Shown here piece after piece: positions 2,697 through 41,095 of a stretch of DNA of 64,000 nt (positions are counted from its first letter, which is position 1; each line of letters starts with the position of its first letter). The DNA lies in NCBI GenBank assembly GCA_964016885.1, contig OZ024743.1, positions 329,034,001 to 329,098,000 on the forward strand, written 5' to 3'. The position numbers were made by a program, and so were the translations under genes. The notes beneath the pieces are model-generated. The model had not been told where the DNA came from. It saw only the letters and a program-made list of their open reading frames with translations, and searched no databases. The DNA is from Eledone cirrhosa (taxonomy: Eukaryota).

Positions 2697-3322
<626 letters not shown>

Positions 3323-3347
3323 ATTTATATATATTTATATATATATA

Positions 3348-3583
<236 letters not shown>

Positions 3584-3584
3584 T

Positions 3585-3907
3585 AAATATACACGGGTGT
3601 GTATGATTGTGTATAGAAGATTATATTAATAAAAGGAATTCCAACTTTGTCTGATTTACTCGTTTTATTTACAATCCTTTAAAATTTATAATGGTATTAG
3701 AATGAAAGTGTATGGTAGAATATTAAATTTTAAGTGTTAATTGAACAAGTACTTTCATGCTTTCGCAATCTTCAGGTTCATATTGTGTGGTGACAGTCAA
3801 GTTTGCAATTTTCAACTGTCAGTTGAAAATTTCATTCTAATACCATTATAAATGTTAAAGGATTGTAAATAAAACGAGTAAATCAGACAAAGTTGGAATT
3901 CCTTTTA

Positions 3908-3911
<4 letters not shown>
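3585..3911 (-). mobile_element. TA-flanked inverted-repeat module with minimal hammerhead at 3742-3780
   Basis: Minus strand reads TGAAC CTGAAGA tTGC gaaa GCAt GAAA GTAC TT^ GTTCA. Arms at about 3625-3717 and 3830-3911. Second copy at 29776-30092. Confidence 0.8.
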
Positions 3912-3953
<42 letters not shown>

Positions 3954-4111
3954 ATCTGTATTTTTGACCGTTGGTCAGTCAATGGTAACATTGAGGACCG
4001 AATAAATTATCCGATATAAAGGACACAGAAGCAAAAACCAACCAAACAGTGAGTGTGTTCTGTTATTAATTCTGGCAATATTATTACACAAATATGACCC
4101 TCCCCAAGTAT

Positions 4112-4189
<78 letters not shown>

Positions 4190-4268
4190 ATAATAATAAT
4201 AAATTTGAATACTAAAATCCAAAGATATAAGAACCGTAGAGCAAATATTTATTAAAATAACAGATTAA

Positions 4269-4319
4269 AGTTTAAGCAAAGAATCGCTGCTTTCACCCTT
4301 AACGGGATCTTCTGAAACT
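4269..4319 (-). ncRNA. Type I hammerhead with CAGAAGA core variant (module 4186-4512)
   Basis: Minus strand reads AGTTT CAGAAGA tCCC gttaa GGGt GAAA GCA gcgattctt TGC TT^ AAACT. Paralogs at 545-596 (decayed) and 22939-22985. Confidence 0.65.
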
Positions 4320-4535
4320 AACAAAGTCAATCTGTAAACGCAGAAGTGGATATTTCAAAAAACGTTGCAACCGGAGGAAGACAGGAAGACGATACTTTGG
4401 TACGTGGAAACGTCCCCTGGCAAAGAACGGGAAAAAAACGAATATAATATGTCATTAATAGCAGCAGTGAAAAACAATTACACGCAAAGACAGAACCACG
4501 TTTATAAAATAAATATATATATACATATATATATA

Positions 4536-4586
<51 letters not shown>

Positions 4587-4644
4587 TCAAAATGGTGAGC
4601 TTTGTTGTTGCAATTAAGTATAATGAAAAATTAGAAGTTAAGAT

Positions 4645-4749
4645 TATCCATCTTCAGCTGTCTACTAGGCATCATAGGCATTTCTTCGCGTTACAGACAA
4701 GATACCTCAGCCTAGGGCGAAACAATAACTAAAGTAAGCTATTGGGATA
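4645..4749 (-). ncRNA. Rearranged hammerhead (R1 copy B, left arm of inverted repeat)
   Basis: Minus strand reads TATCC CAATAGCT..AGTTATTG tTTCGCc CTAGGC tGA GGTATC^ TTGTCT gtaac GCGA A GAAA TGCC tatGAt GCCTAG t AGACAG CTGAAGA T GGATA. Confidence 0.8.
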
Positions 4750-4756
4750 AAAAGAA

Positions 4757-4860
4757 ATCCCAATAACTTACTTTAGTTATTGTTTCGCCCTAGGCTGAGG
4801 TATCTTGCCTGTAACGTGAAGAAATGCCGATGATGCCTAGTAGACAACTGATGATGGATA
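4757..4860 (+). ncRNA. Rearranged hammerhead (R1 copy B', right arm)
   Basis: ATC^ ends at 4804, GAAA 4821-4824, CTGATGA 4848-4854. K-turn formed by CTGA 4795-4798 and GATGAT 4829-4834. Confidence 0.75.
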
Positions 4861-4983
4861 ATCCTAATTTCTAATTTTTCATTATATATATATATAATTA
4901 TATAATTATAAGAAACGAAATGAGCTGTGTGGTTACTGTAAACAAAGTTTAAGATGGTAGTATGGACGAAACAAGATAATAAA

Positions 4984-5092
4984 GCCTTCATCAGCTGTAA
5001 ACCGCAGATCATAGATGTTTCGGCGCTTAATACAGGACATCTAAAAGCGATTAGCGGTGCGCCCAAGGCCTTTTATCGATCAAAAGGCCAGG
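4984..5092 (-). ncRNA. Rearranged hammerhead, second family (R2), in TA-flanked module 4905-5121
   Basis: Minus strand reads GGCCTTTT..AAAAGGCC hairpin, GGCGC, ACCGC..AGATGTC^ CTGTA ttaa GCGCC GAAA CATCT..GCGGT t TACAG CTGATGA AGGC. Confidence 0.75.
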
Positions 5093-5117
5093 AGGGAAAG
5101 AAAAGAAAAAAGAAGAG

Positions 5118-5171
<54 letters not shown>

Positions 5172-5227
5172 ATAAATTAACGGAGCCATAGACTCTCGCT
5201 ATTCCCTGTCAATAATGTGCTCAAAGG

Positions 5228-5830
5228 AAAAGGAAATCCTGAGCTCTTTAAAATACAATATGTTGAAAAGGTAACACACTAGAGAGAGATAGTACGCCAT
5301 CAATAAAACAGGGAAAAACAACCAGTGTATGGAATCTATAACCTATGAAAGGCAGGGTAGACACACAATAATTAAAAATATAAATTAAAATACGTACCTC
5401 TATAACTATATAATACACACGTACAAATCCAAAGAGATCTGTTTCACCAAGAAGTGGTTGACTGAAATGGAATAGCCCATGGTTCATCAGCGTGTGCTAG
5501 GCTATACATTTCAGACAACTCTAAGAGAATTTAAAGCGAACGTCCAGCTACACATGGCGTGTTTAGGGCAGTGAACCAGTGGTGCCTGAGGGACGAGCTT
5601 CTAGAAAGGGCAGCCCCAAACCACTTCTTGTCGAAAGAGATCTCTTTGGATTTGTATGTGTGTGTTATATAGTTATAGAGGTACGTATATACATTTTAAT
5701 TTATATTTTTAATTATTGTGTGTCTACCCTGCCTTTCATAGGTTATAGATTCCATACACTGGTGGTTTTTCCCTGTTTTATTGATGGCATACTATCTCTC
5801 TCTCGTGTGTTACCTTTTCAACATATTGTA
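5228..5830. mobile_element. TA-flanked module with ~230-bp inverted arms and two decayed hammerheads
   Basis: Arms at about 5250-5458 and 5620-5830. CTGATGA ACCA..TGGT GAAA CAGATCTC on minus (5425-5495); CTGAGG GACGAG..CTTGTC GAAA GAGATCTC TT on plus (5583-5652). Confidence 0.65.
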
Positions 5831-5849
5831 TATATATATATATAATCCA

Positions 5850-5900
5850 TGCTAGCGTGGAAGATGGATGTTAAACGAAGATGATGATGATGATGATGAT
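5850..5900 (+). mobile_element. SINE/RTE-type 3' tail with (GAT)n
   Basis: CATGCTAGCGTGGAAGATGGATGTTAAAC followed by GAT repeats. Confidence 0.45.
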
Positions 5901-6051
5901 ACAGGGAGTGTAACTTGGAGTTACTGTAGGTTCATCCGGGTGAGCACTCGATGTTTAGGTTCACTTCAGTGTCGAGGTGCAGAGCTAGACAGAGTGTATT
6001 ATAGTGAAATAAAATAACAAGGACGATTGGTTACTCCTTCATTACTTTTAT

Positions 6052-6143
6052 TGGTTGGTGACGCGCGTTTCGCCCCTGATAAGCTCAAGGTTCAATCTGT
6101 ATCGATCTGACCCTACTCTGTAATCCGCGGCTCGTCGGACCCC
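6052..6143 (-). ncRNA. Hammerhead with long stem II and GAAACGCGCGTC minimal stem III (core CCGACGA, mutated)
   Basis: Paralog of 43906-43997, which has an intact CTGACGA, and of 52490-52590. AATAAA follows the cleavage site. Confidence 0.65.
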
Positions 6144-6373
6144 TTATAATAGTAATGGATATTTATATATATATATATATAATATATATATTTATATATA
6201 TATATATATAACGAAGGAGTTGTGGTAAGGAACCAGATGGACCATAACGCACCAGAGTACTCAATACTTAGGGTAGTAGAGTGGGTAATAGGAGAAAGTA
6301 TGACCCCGACGGCAGAAATAGCCGTCAAAAGGGTTTGAGCTCTGCCATCGGTTTGAGCTCTGTCATACTTTCT

Positions 6374-6434
<61 letters not shown>

Positions 6435-6579
6435 TATATTATATTTAGAGTTATAAACTCAAACAGTCCTTTACAATTAATTAGCTCAAAGAGCTAATTG
6501 GTCATTTACAATACAAACACTTATATTTTTATATTGGTGTTTATCATATATTAATTTATATTAACTTGTATATATATAG

Positions 6580-7560
6580 AGAGACCAAGGGAGAGAGAGA
6601 GAGAGAGAGAGAGAAACAAAGAGAGAGGGGGAGAGGGAGATTTATATAGAGAGACAGAGAAAGAGATTTATATAGAGAGAGAGAGACAGAGAAAGAGAGA
6701 CCAAGGGAGAGAGAGAGAAACAAAGAGAGAGGGGGAGAGGGAGATTTATAGAGAGAGAGGGGGAGAGAGAGATTTATATAGAGAGAGAGACAGAGAAAGA
6801 GGGACTAAGGGAGAGAGAGAGAGAAACAAAGAGAGAGGGGAGAGGGAGATTTATATAGAGAGACAGAGAAAGAGATTTATATATATATAGAGAGAGAGAC
6901 AGAGAAAGAGAGACCAAGGGAGAGAGAGAGAAACAAAGAGAGAGGGGGAGAGGGAGATTTATAGAGAGAGAGGGGGAGAGAGAGATTTATATATAGAGAG
7001 AGACAGAGAAAGAGGGACTAAGGGAGAGAGAGAGAGAAACAAAGAGAGAGGGGAGAGGGAGATTTATATAGAGAGACAGAGAAAGAGATTTATATATATA
7101 TAGAGAGAGAGACAGAGAAAGAGAGACCAAGGGAGAGAGAGAGAAACAAAGAGAGAGGGGGAGAGGGAGATTTATAGAGAGAGAGGGGGAGAGAGAGATT
7201 TATATATAGAGAGAGACAGAGAAAGAGGGACTAAGGGAGAGAGAGAGAGAAACAAAGAGAGAGGGGAGAGGGAGATTTATATAGAGAGACAGAGAAAGAG
7301 ATTTATATATATATAGAGAGAGAGACAGAGAAAGAGAGACCAAGGGAGAGAGAGAGAAACAAAGAGAGAGGGGGAGAGGGAGATTTATAGAGAGAGAGGG
7401 GGAGAGAGAGATTTATATATAGAGAGAGACAGAGAAAGAGGGACTAAGGGAGAGAGAGAGAGAAACAAAGAGAGAGAGGGGGAGAGAGAGATTTATATAT
7501 AGAGAGAGAAACGAAGAGAGAGAGGGGGAGAGAGAGATTTATATAGAGAGAGAGACTGAG
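6580..7560. repeat. AG-rich tandem repeat, 213-bp higher-order unit made of two related subunits
   Basis: GAGACCAAGGG recurs at about 6698, 6911, 7124 and 7337. Confidence 0.85.
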
Positions 7561-7685
7561 AAAGAGAAAAAGATAGAGAGAAAGACAACGAGATAGAGAG
7601 AAAGAAAGAGAGAGAGAGAGAGAGGCAGGCGCCGTACGAAGAAAATCTCAGGACGCTGAATAGTGACAATAGTTTGTAATGTTTG

Positions 7686-7812
<127 letters not shown>

Positions 7813-7819
7813 TATATAA

Positions 7820-8033
<214 letters not shown>

Positions 8034-8391
8034 TTATAAGTGTGTCTGGTAATTAAGAAATAAATAGCCAGAAGAAATAATAGGCTATTAATTACTTATT
8101 TTATCTAATTAACTAAATGATACACAGTTAATGAGTTTTCCACCCATTGGCAAGTACAGTCTTTGGACATTGCTGACGTTTCAATGGAACATCTTTGGTA
8201 CGTTTCTAGTTCTGGTTACATATAAACATATATACATGTCCATACGTCTATATTAGTGGAAACATACACACTATTTATAGTGATCAATTATTAAGATCAC
8301 TTGCATTGGGACGCACCCATTTCAAATCATCATGATGCTTCATACGTTAGCTGTTTTATTTATATATTTATATATACATGCTTTTACATGT

Positions 8392-8586
8392 CAGACTTGC
8401 CAACCTCTAAAACCCAAACCGTGAGTGCGATGAAAAAACGTGTCCCAAATCGGGGAGAAATGAGGTAAAATAGGGAGATGTTACATAATGAAAGCTATAT
8501 TAATTTTTACGAGAGAAAACATCTCTCGCCCACCCCAAGGTGGGTGGGAGATCTCCCCGTCCGACAGGGAGAGTTGACAGGTCTGA
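8392..8586. mobile_element. Short MITE with terminal inverted repeats
   Basis: CAGACTTGCCAAC ... GTTGACAGGTCTG imperfect TIRs; no clear target-site duplication. Confidence 0.5.
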
Positions 8587-8683
8587 TGTTTCACTTAAGT
8601 ATCTTCTTGTCATATGACATATGCACAGTATCTAGAGAAGCAGGTTGAGACCGGCGAGCTAGACCAAGGCCTGATTTGCAGCA

Positions 8684-8866
8684 TTATGGATTGCCTCCAG
8701 GCCGCTGGGAATACGTCTGAGGGGTGCAATCCCGAACAACATACAGTACTGTTTGCTCAGGGTCCCCACAGTCACATGCTGGGCTGTCTTTTATTTTCCA
8801 TTGATGGAGATGATGGGCTGTCCTGGAATTTGTTGTGCGGATCCGATTAAGCAACACCCATTGCTT
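8684..8866 (-). pseudogene. C-terminal fragment of an Ingi/I-group-like LINE ORF
   Basis: QWVLLNRIRT..RTAHHLHQWKIKDSPACDCGDPEQTVLYVVRDC matches the RxRTG..W...SP.CxCG..QT..H...C motif. Confidence 0.75.
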
Positions 8867-8949: not shown

Positions 8950-9557
8950 TCAGGTCACGAGTTGGTGCTACTGGTAACATGTATCCCAGTACAACATGTC
9001 TCATGGTCGGGTCGTTGGCGACTAAACTGGCAACCCCACCAAGGTTTCTTGGTGAGGAGGGTGACTTTGGACATCCTGCAGGACTAGAAACAAAACCTGT
9101 CAAAGGGCAAAGGAGCTCTTAAGAGTCAATGGCCATCCAAAATCACCGGGAGAGATGACCCCTTAGCCTTTGTCAAGGCAGAATTCTAGGAGAAGGAAAA
9201 CTCTGATATAACACCTGCAACCCTGATGGTATCCAATGATGTTGACTTGTTCTTCTTTTTGGTAAATATCATCTTGGTTAAGAGAGTGGGACTGGCTTTG
9301 TGCAGTGCCTTTGCTCACTATAAAAGCTTCACGGCACAGGCATTGCTTTGTATCTGGAGATCTCTCTGCACTTGTCGTCACATGGTACCATGGGCCCAGC
9401 ACAATGTGTCAATAATTGTCACAAGTGTAGTGTTTGTACCAGAGTTTTCAAGTCGCTGGCTGGACTAAAAAGTCACACTCGTACAGCGCATCGGTAGGGG
9501 TTCTTCTACATGGATATAAAGTAGTGGCCGTACTCGAAAACGAGTTGGCAGCCACCA
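8950..9557 (+). mobile_element. Bipartite non-autonomous RTE derivative flanked by (ATGT)n
   Basis: RTE 5'UTR-like CTAGGAGAAGGAAAACTCTGA plus 3' C2H2 remnant CHKCSVCTRVFKSLAGLKSH and ATGT tail. Relatives at 13878-14105(-), 14430-14960(-), 23335-23750(+), 2270-2340(-), 11320-11357(+). Confidence 0.75.
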
Positions 9558-9633
9558 TGTATGTATGTATGTATGTATGTATGTATGTATGTATGTATGT
9601 ATGTATGTATGTATGTATGTATGTATGTATGTA

Positions 9634-11005
9634 TGGAGTGAAACAGGGGGATATTGCAGCACCGACCCTGTTTGCCATATACTTTGCAATGGTTTTCTGT
9701 ATTGCATTCAGGAATTGCGAGCATGGTGTTTACATCCGATATCGAACCTCAGGCAGCATATTTAACATCAGGCGCTTTGCTGCAAAGACAAAAGTATTTA
9801 CATCAATCATAAGAGACCTCTTGTGTGCAGATGATTGCGATCTTGTAGCGCACACAGAGAGTGATATGCAGCACATTTTGAATGCATTTTCTGACGCTTG
9901 CACTGCCCTAGGATTGACTGTCAGTCTCAAGAAAACCGTCGTCATGTACCAACCTGCCCCTGGTAAGCAGTACACTGAACCAAATATCTATGTGTATGGT
10001 AAACGACTTGGAGTGGTTGATCAGTTTGTCTACCTGGGAAGCACTGTCAATCGATACAGCAACCTTGACAGTGAAATCTCACTTAGGATTAGGAAAGCAA
10101 GTGATGCTTTCGGAAAGCTAGAAAGGCGACTCTGGGGTCGGCGAGACATATGCAGGAGGACAAAGGTAAAGGTGTACAAGGCATGTGTGCTCTCTTGTCT
10201 TCTTTATGCCTGCGAGACCTGGGTCACATATCGACACCACCTTAAGCAATTGGAGCGTTTCCATCAGATGTGTCTCAGACGGATCCATGGCGTTCACTGG
10301 GGGGACCACATCAGTGATGTCGAGATTTTGGAAAGCTCTATGTGTGACAGTATAGAAGCTCTTGTGCTTAAGCAACGACTCCGTTGGAGTGGTCACCTTG
10401 CCAGGATGAAGGATTCTAGAATACCAAAACAACTCTTTTATGGAGAGTTGGTTAAAGGAAAACGACCGCCACATAAACCAAAAAAGAGGTATAAGGATTC
10501 CTTGAAAGCCTCTTTGAAAGACGCTAACATCTCTGCTGATACATGGGAAAATATTGCTGCTGATCGTAATAAATGGAGAAAGACTGTATATGAGGGAAAA
10601 GTTGCCTTTGAGGCATCTCGAATTGCATACGAGAAAGTAAAGCGGGATGTGAGGAAGGGCATTGCTGTTGCACTTCCAGACGGCGAGGGTCCTCCTAGGG
10701 TGCTGACTTGCAGCGTCTGTGCGAGACTCTGCCTAAGCAAAGCTGTACTCGAAAGTCATCTTCGCAGTCATAAAGTAAGACCAGTGGTTGACTACCAGGC
10801 TGCTGTTGGAGATGCTACTCATCATGCTTGCCAAACATGTGATAGAGAATGTAAATCAGCAGGAGGGCTCAAGCGACATGCAAAAGTGCATGAACTCTAA
10901 CCACAGCCGGCTATTCCCAGTGAATGTTTTGGTTGCCGACTCTGTGCAAGACATTTTAGATCATTGGCTGGGCTAAAAATCCACATTCGATCGCAGCGCT
11001 GTTAG
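9634..11005 (+). mobile_element. 5'-truncated RTE-clade LINE: reverse transcriptase C-terminal half plus three C2H2 zinc fingers
   Basis: GVKQGDIAAPTLF, LLCADD, FVYLGS, LLYACETW, LRWSGHLARM..RIPKQLFYGEL. Fingers CSVC..H..H and CQTC..H..H, with a third (CRLCARHFRSLAGLKIHIRS) frameshifted after 10900. Confidence 0.95.
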
Positions 11006-11430: not shown

Positions 11431-12690
11431 GAGGGTCTAATGCCAAAACAAAAAAACTTTCAAGCTTCGTCCTAACACACACAGAAGTTGGCATGCAGCA
11501 ATTATAGACCATTTCTCATCCTCGTGTACATCATTTGGGCTCACAATCAGCCTTATAAAGACCAAAGTAATGTTTATCCCTGCCCCCGGAGACCCATATA
11601 CTGAACCCCATATCATGGTTGATGGAACCAGGTTAGGAGTAGTAGATAAATTTGTCTACTTGGTCAGCACACTCTCAAATGATAGTTCATTGGATGCTGA
11701 AATAGATCTGCGCGTCCAGAAGGCCTCTGTTGCCTTCGGAAAATTGGAAAAGAGAGTTTAGGCAAATCACAACATTCCCAACAATACCAAGGTGTGTGTA
11801 TAGATCATGTGTTCTATCTGCTCTTTTATACTCCACCGAAACCTGGACGCTATTCCGCAAACACAAAATTGCTTGAGCGTTTTCAGCAGAAATGTTTAAA
11901 GCGCATATTCAACATCAAGTGGCAAGACAGAACTCCTGACATACATGTTCTTATCAAAGCAGAATGTCCAAGCATTGATCCCCAAGTAACATCTCAAATG
12001 CACTGGACAGGACATACTATCCGCATGAAAGAAAGCAGGATACCGAAGCAACTGTTTTATGGTGAGCTCTATCTTGGAAAAAGGCCTCAACACAAACTGC
12101 AAATGAGGTTCCAGGACAGCATCAAGAACAACCTCAAAGAGCTGGCATTTGATATAGACAACTGGAAGGAGATAGCTCTAAATAGGGCTGAGTGGAGAAA
12201 GCGCATAAAGGGCAGTTGCAAAGCTTTTGAGGAATGTCGTCTAGAACATAAACAACTGAAGCGTCAGCTCCGGAAGGGCTGTGCTCACAGTTTTGATGAA
12301 GTCATCAGTAGTTGGACATGCAATTTCTGTCAGCGTGTGCTCCTCTCAAAGGCTGGTTATGTTAATCACCTGAAGTCCCATGAAAGGATAACCACCCGCA
12401 ACACCACTCAACAAAGACCTGGCGAAACAAGGTGCGTAATATGCAACAAAGTGTGTAGAACTAGTTCCGGACTAAAAAGACATATGGTGGTACATATAGA
12501 TTGCGTCCCACAGGGTGACCCCAACGGTCCTGTGGAAAGCACAACTCTCTTCTGTCACCTGTGTTGTAAGCCATGCAGATCTACAGCTGGCCTACAAAGT
12601 CATCAACGAATTGATGGACGCCGATGGGATAATAACGAAGAATCAATAGGAGACGGCAATCGTCTGTGAAGTCGCTGCAATCCTCATGTA
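11430..12690 (+). mobile_element. Second, more decayed RTE-clade LINE with three C2H2 fingers and (ATGT)n tail
   Basis: VDKFVYLVS, HWTGHTIRM..RIPKQLFYGEL, CNFC/CVIC/CHLC fingers. Contains stops and frameshifts; ATGT tracts at both ends. Confidence 0.92.
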
Positions 12691-41051: not shown

Positions 41052-41095
41052 ACCGTCCTGACGAAGGCCAGTTAAGCCTGAAATGCATAGACGGT
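41052..41095 (+). ncRNA. Intact minimal type I hammerhead
   Basis: ACCGTC CTGACGA AGGC cagttaa GCCT GAAA TGC ATA^ GACGGT, with palindromic ATGCAT. Confidence 0.88.

Follow-up and report, generated by a model that had tools for sequence, protein, structure and literature searches.

What is a kink-turn (k-turn) sequence doing in the arm of a putative hammerhead ribozyme whose conserved blocks stand in a rearranged order? This question is raised by positions 4790-4840 (forward strand) of the 64,000-nt stretch of Eledone cirrhosa DNA analysed here, hereafter called the window, which read CTAGGC-T-GA-GGTAT...ATGCC-GAT-GA-T-GCCTAG. In the nomenclature of PMC8191799, the parts are a 5-bp C helix (GGTAT at 4799-4803, paired with 4824-4828) with C:G at -1b:-1n, the bulge L1-L3 (GAU) followed by G1b, A2b and a U at 3b (4829-4834), the opposite nucleotides U3n, G2n and A1n (4796-4798), and a 6-bp NC helix formed by CTAGGC (4790-4795) and GCCTAG (4835-4840), the latter strand being followed by a 2-nt linker to stem I that ends at 4842. 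The pairs beyond the bulge read G1b.A1n, A2b.G2n and U3b.U3n, and the sequence as such is that of a textbook k-turn. Standard k-turns such as Kt-7, box C/D and U4 share with it the 3-nt bulge, G1b.A1n, A2b.G2n, C:G at -1 and the NC helix, and they mostly carry a non-Watson-Crick 3b.3n pair, as found here. K-turns in general have a kinked geometry with cross-strand hydrogen bonds and are folded by ions or L7Ae. In contrast to known k-turns, the C helix in this RNA is the predicted catalytic stem III of a hammerhead.

The earlier note on this DNA had recognized four copies of the pattern helix-N-GA-GGTAT...bulge-GA in the window, and this was borne out, GAGGTAT being located at 3098 (+), 4797 (+), 51632 (+) and 4708 (-). 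The respective copies are A (3059-3160, +), a member of a young subfamily with U.G at 3b.3n, in which all 40 scored candidates were 100% identical over 121 nt; C (4757-4859, +), which contains the motif described above; D (51593-51694, +); and B (4646-4748, -), an inverted sister of copy C that lies head-to-head with it and is 94% identical. The four belong to one repeat family, and B and C form an inverted pair, so that their independence had been overstated. Nor did the flanking helix change completely, as had been claimed: it is identical in B and C, and the differences, all compensatory, amount to one of six pairs in D and three of six in A. Copy C is probably a decayed insertion, since it has a mismatch in stem I and is located in a 130-bp inverted repeat. 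A core-anchored pattern gave six matches in the window as compared with 0.06 expected, adding copy E (51904-51980, -), an internally deleted member of a subfamily with U at 2n that has lost the non-bulged strand, and copy F (4984-5095, -), which has the same core order and a roughly 7x3 U-rich internal loop; neither has the k-turn. A descriptor of the bare k-turn hairpin found four matches, as compared with 0-3 in 12 block shuffles (mean 0.75). Since the bare hairpin is only modestly above chance, what makes the motif significant is its constant position relative to the ribozyme core. Nested folding with RNAfold, a method that cannot model pseudoknots, recovered stem III and the NC arm in the four copies.

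The core blocks follow each other, 5' to 3', in the order cleavage site, GAAA, CUGAnGA (S-G-C). By analogy with the hammerhead consensus, C17 of an AUC triplet is predicted at 4804, and cleavage is expected 3' of it; in copy A, the corresponding cut is predicted 3' of 3105. Hammerhead stems I and III are both present and covary across 28 lineages: stem I (4805-4809 with 4843-4847, one C.A mismatch in copy C) was paired in 97.1% of cells with four of five pairs covarying, and stem III in 96.4% with three of five. A 6-nt linker (4810-4815) follows stem I; its third nucleotide (U) and fifth (A) are invariant in all 28 lineages and probably make a tertiary contact. The A before stem I was kept in 26 of the 28 lineages. 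Next come the 3' strand of helix b, part of a split stem II (4816-4819), then position 11.1, the GAAA block and the stem III 3' strand (4820-4828); downstream of the k-turn, 4843-4859 hold the stem I 3' strand, the CUGAUGA block (4848-4854), position 10.1 and the GGAT strand of helix a. The strands before GAAA and after CUGAUGA both pair with a 5' extension (4757-4789), in which the helix a strand (4757-4760) and the helix b strand (4785-4788) flank a 7-bp hairpin (4761-4782); helix a was paired in 82.1% of cells (two of four pairs covarying) and helix b in 92.0% (three of four). A direct stem II of the kind that published SGC ribozymes form was rejected, as only 39.3% direct pairing was obtained in the 28 lineages. 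In place of stem II, we found a four-way junction (4757-4788, 4816-4820, 4855-4859) comprising helix a, the hairpin, helix b and a single 10.1:11.1 pair, which was formed in 18 of 28 lineages by four pair types (A-U 5, U-A 5, G-C 4, G-U 4) and was unpaired in 10. Alternatively, the 10.1/11.1 nucleotide could, by analogy, correspond to a base left unpaired in the minimal hammerheads of Penelope elements (PMC4209133). The junction may be a greater novelty than the k-turn. The permuted-core RNA looks, by its likeness to known ribozymes, like a self-cleaving hammerhead that would be cut 3' of 4804; the lack of a normal stem II in the core makes its catalytic activity a tentative assignment.

To describe conservation at the level of lineages, 385 matches were reduced to 321 unique sequences and 310 untruncated copies in 62 clusters, from which 30 groups (17 clusters and 13 singletons) were picked by eye; truncated, junction and decayed singletons as well as two near-duplicate clusters were left out. 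One real copy from each of 28 groups was aligned, the two groups without a k-turn being omitted. The proposed structure was paired in 91.2% of cells, and 22 of 32 pairs showed two-sided change. The covariation score was 0.509, as compared with 0.213 for shuffled alignments (0 of 500 reaching it) and at most 0.118 for slid ones, figures that relatedness among lineages chosen by eye can inflate. The NC helix was paired in 94.6% of cells, five of its six pairs changing on both sides, and a 3-nt bulge separated the two helices in all 28 lineages. The k-turn columns were nearly uniform, with A at 1n, A at 2b and G at -1n in all 28 lineages, and G at 1b in 27. At -1b:-1n, C:G, the preferred k-turn pair (PMC8191799), was present in 25 of 28 lineages owing to C at -1b, whereas other stem III pairs covary. 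The 3b.3n position was unpaired in 23 of 28 lineages beside an NC helix that is 95% paired. Parsimony required no step at 1n, 2b and -1n and one at 1b, as compared with 8/9 for the variable 3n/3b, 11 for L1 and 6-11 for positions of the 3' flank. The linker U3 and A5 also needed no step, so that such invariance is not unique to the k-turn. The reading of the element as a 3-nt bulge followed by G.A/A.G pairs in the extension of stem III was upheld across the family by this conservation and covariation.

The exception is 2n, which was U in 15 lineages and G in 13. On a tree built without the k-turn columns, 2n needed two changes, both between G and U and forced by well-supported branches; among lineages it switched only between these two nucleotides, at least twice. 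This limitation matches the folding rule of the non-standard Kt-23, which also has U at 2n: in Thermus thermophilus, Kt-23 folds when 2n is U or G and not when it is C (PMC2790904), and C and A also occur there across species (PMC5061560). We then compared the 3b.3n pairs with Mg2+ folding values measured in the Kt-7 context (PMC4382518), in which seven of the 16 possible pairs reach an EFRET of 0.41, taken as the cut-off for full or partial folding. Twelve of the 13 G2n lineages, but only eight of the 15 U2n lineages, have a pair at 0.41 or more. The commonest pair, U.U, is intermediate (0.41, a Kt-7 value). Three of the U2n lineages have a Watson-Crick 3b.3n pair, which may reduce the motif to a 4x1 loop. 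Tertiary contacts are able to fold otherwise impaired k-turns (PMC5061560), and by analogy they may carry the U2n lineages.

The Eledone genome (3.0 Gb) is rich in TA repeats. A pattern fixing only the hammerhead core, namely CUGAnGA, GAAA and the NUH triplet, with A15.1-U16.1 imposed by the search, detected 20,434 copies genome-wide as compared with 87 in the control; a narrower variable-spacing pattern detected 11,777 as compared with 0, and by eye the bulge had its standard length in 92 of the first 100 of these. Both GA dinucleotides were kept in 16,328 of the 20,434 core matches (80%; control, 0), and the GA of the bulged strand was seen by eye in approximately 97 of the first 100 core-pattern matches listed. 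UA on the non-bulged strand occurred in 1,927 matches; among the first 100, 69 begin with TAG and 30 are (TA)n truncation junctions (by eye), from which the real UA-type copies are extrapolated to roughly 1,300. A or C at 2n was found in 329 copies scattered among subfamilies. In a position-ordered sample, which under-represents the U2n clade, 79 of 90 copies had intact helices, with G2n in 76, A1n in 75, G1b in 77 and A2b in 79. In one sequencing run (X1), which may come from the source sample, 1,879 contigs contained no variant of at least 5% at 2n, 1n, -1n, 1b or 2b, whereas such variants do occur at 3n, 3b and L1. Genome-wide conservation of the GA dinucleotides, the lack of which would have refuted the earlier note, applies to the bulged-strand GA and A1n, holds in part for G2n, and fails entirely in the subfamily of copy F. 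A very divergent lineage (L291, G000:C1:2192276-2192333), with a GUA triplet and different stems I and III, retains A1n and the bulged-strand GA; judging from its sequence, older relatives probably exist.

Copy F lies 150 bp from copy C and is a natural control adjoining the finding, in that the core is kept and the k-turn is lost. Its subfamily has 1,556 first-look candidates. The sequence GAUC is engaged there in Watson-Crick pairing, which leaves the U-rich loop; no more than 11 of 20 copies retain A1n, and the G1b.A1n pair is lost. Such an exchange of the k-turn for a flexible loop is expected if the bend is what matters.

Taken together, these data indicate that selection acts on the k-turn sequence in the greater part of the family and that its role is most likely architectural; we consider it probable that a structural k-turn is needed for this non-circularly permuted hammerhead to close. 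Stem III always extends for 5 bp into the 3-nt bulge, the G.A and A.(G or U) pairs and a 6-bp helix, and the covariation shows that 2 nt connect the distal end of the NC helix with stem I and 1 nt connects it with helix b. In hammerheads, stems II and III are coaxial and the far end of stem III is distant from the contact between stems I and II (Eckert 2023, PMC10085705). If stem III likewise points away from stems I and II in the active fold, the 14-bp arm must reverse, and a kink with an included angle of approximately 50 degrees would bring its end within reach of stem I. A back-of-envelope geometry, using helix dimensions and not coordinates, puts the gap to stem I at 55-62 A for a straight arm, 41-47 A for an angle of 120 degrees and 12-18 A for one of 50 degrees. 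The constant lengths of the helices would likewise be accounted for by such closure. The kink would fold with Mg2+, tertiary contacts and the surrounding cage of helices, with no need of a specific protein, although the box C/D k-turn, which copy C resembles, does not fold in Mg2+ alone (0.29). Cleavage 3' of 4804 would then cut tandem transcripts into monomers of 470-634 nt. The proposal that the kink folds the chain back so that the core can close is thus favoured by family-wide conservation, covariation and this rough model, and the kink is best read, by analogy, as a brace like that in RNase P.

A host protein of the L7Ae family (15.5K/Snu13) might instead bind the k-turn and switch cleavage or ligation, at least in box C/D-like subfamilies. 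The box C/D k-turn consensus is RUGAUGA paired with CUGA. Copy C agrees with it at 4/4 positions of box D and 6/7 of box C: it has CUGA with AUGAUG(C), its L3 is U, its 3b.3n pair is U.U and its 4b-4n pair is G-C. Of the 28 lineages, 19 have U at L3 and 27 have a purine at L2, and box C/D k-turns require L7Ae for folding. A helper protein has been raised for slow SGC ribozymes (Eckert 2023, PMC10085705), and Cervera 2020 reason that the in vivo block on retrozyme hammerheads must have a cause other than self-pairing. The full signature (CUGA with RUGAUG), however, was present in 2,213 of 20,434 copies (11%), leaving 89% without it, so that the box C/D resemblance pointed out earlier stands for copy C and is a minority feature in the family. 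Moreover, G2n, which is read by L7Ae proteins (PMC5061560) through contact with an asparagine, is replaced by U in 15 of the 28 lineages; changes at 3b.3n run between pairs that fold in Mg2+ (U.G, A.G, C.U, C.A) and not towards the non-folding U4 type; and subfamily F has no k-turn to bind. We therefore regard protein gating as unlikely, and give equally little credence to its fuller form, in which a natural hammerhead of new connectivity, with a permuted core, a four-way junction in place of stem II and a k-turn closing it into a cage of helices, would be carried by approximately 20,000 retroelement copies and would, in the box C/D-like subfamilies, cleave, re-ligate or stay circular depending on Snu13/15.5K binding, as a hammerhead switched by a protein in nature.

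Slightly less likely still is a generic flexible hinge, that is, an asymmetric loop with one sheared G.A pair that bends without k-turn geometry. The U2n lineages lend themselves to it, as a Watson-Crick A-U pair is a possible reading of 2b:2n in all 15 of them, followed by C-G or U-A in three, and subfamily F was amplified with a plain loop. A hinge of this kind does not account for a bulge of exactly 3 nt, for fixed A1n, A2b and G-1n with C:G preferred at -1, or for G2n being held in the 13 lineages that make up most copies. Finally, the view that the pattern has no function and is common by descent in a recently amplified repeat is very improbable: all copies do belong to one family in one genome, and the metagenome and viral searches gave no convincing relative elsewhere, but the two-sided changes and covariation described above argue against it, as does the 150 nt upstream, which is near shuffle-level identity for most subfamily pairs, some of whose flanks may be truncated.

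The searches outside the genome consisted of a metagenome pattern search with 21 matches and a viral one with four, all chance-like by eye and without the stems of the family, and of sequencing runs of organisms B and C, which gave two and nine low-depth records, respectively, and no evidence for other species. Rfam matched the window 114 times at E values up to 1, none being a hammerhead or k-turn RNA and none at gathering score; on seven genomic loci it likewise found no hammerhead or k-turn RNA at gathering score.

Seven loci chosen for their tandem copies contain eight units of 470-634 bp in tandem, with one ribozyme each. Units are often 5'-truncated or inverted, and in the largest group they end at (TA)n approximately 23 or 70 nt past the core. 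At three loci (L232, L235 and L237), the 5' end left by truncation directly joins an inverted piece of one C-rich retroelement, which encodes a reverse transcriptase (RT) together with a GIY-YIG domain at the C terminus (Pfam E values of 1.4e-5 and 7.5e-4, both matches lying below the curated cut-offs). Since such traits fit Penelope-like elements (PMC8557442), we infer from these sequences that the ribozyme repeat is a non-autonomous, Penelope-mobilised, retrozyme-like element. Several Penelope-like ORFs near copies were rejected as the autonomous partner, as they had inserted independently into the same (TA)n tract and carry ordinary hammerheads of their own; among the loci near copies, we found no ORF-bearing element with the permuted ribozyme in its repeat. 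The permuted form possibly arose, on sequence grounds, by rearrangement of a tandem unit. An ordinary Penelope-type minimal hammerhead at window position 1118 (-) and at locus L179 agrees with helix a of subfamily A in its post-CUGAUGA bases and its stem II (GGAC/GTCC). At locus L233, positions 3289-8766 form a 5.5-kb near-perfect palindrome of two head-to-head truncated Penelope-like copies.

The window also contains hammerhead-like cores at 41058 (+), 40766 (-), 41320 (-), 53411 (-), 52787 (-), 47222 (-), 42877 (-), 28735 (-), 1615 (+) and 2444 (-), which represent at least four further families, one of them with a long bulged stem II (47222, 42877 and 28735). Fragments of RT ORFs of a non-LTR retrotransposon occur at 9431-10897 and 11701-12666 (+), with weak RVT_1 and zinc-finger matches, and a 230-bp inverted repeat is formed by 44294-44523 and 44860-45089 (99% complementary, 336 nt apart).

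[quoted passage not shown] The published SGC ribozymes originate from metatranscriptomes; they form stem II directly and have, in addition, an interaction helix with the 3' tail, neither of which was seen here in a comparison by eye with the SGC-1 and SGC-3 oligonucleotides. The present family has no direct stem II, and its G-to-C linker pairs with a 5' strand through the k-turn. By sequence, the family is not a strict-sense member of type SGC. The words 'kink' and 'k-turn' do not occur in the running text of that paper and its supplement. In the literature searched, mostly open-access titles, we found no natural hammerhead with a k-turn and no animal SGC family. Metazoan non-LTR retrozymes (PMC7229834; bioRxiv 10.64898/2026.07.22.740005; see also PMC11167929 for retrozyme-like background) are similar non-coding tandem repeats with one hammerhead per unit, and they share the thousands of copies and the Penelope-like link (PMC7229834). 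Known retrozymes are expressed as monomeric RNAs, both linear and circular, and have a type I hammerhead in units of 150-450 bp, in contrast to the permuted core in units of 470-634 bp in this family. In RNase P and the lysine riboswitch, which are a different class of RNA, a k-turn or pk-turn enables a long-range contact and is exchangeable between lineages (PMC5061560); the replacement there is a different bent element, whereas here it is the internal loop of subfamily F. As far as these sequence comparisons go, the combination of k-turn, permuted hammerhead and retrozyme appears to be unreported.

[quoted passage not shown] It would serve as a scaffold for L7Ae-responsive ribozyme switches and would open the in vivo control of retrozyme cleavage to testing. 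Permuted hammerheads would thereby move from metatranscriptome contigs into a high-copy retroelement of an animal.
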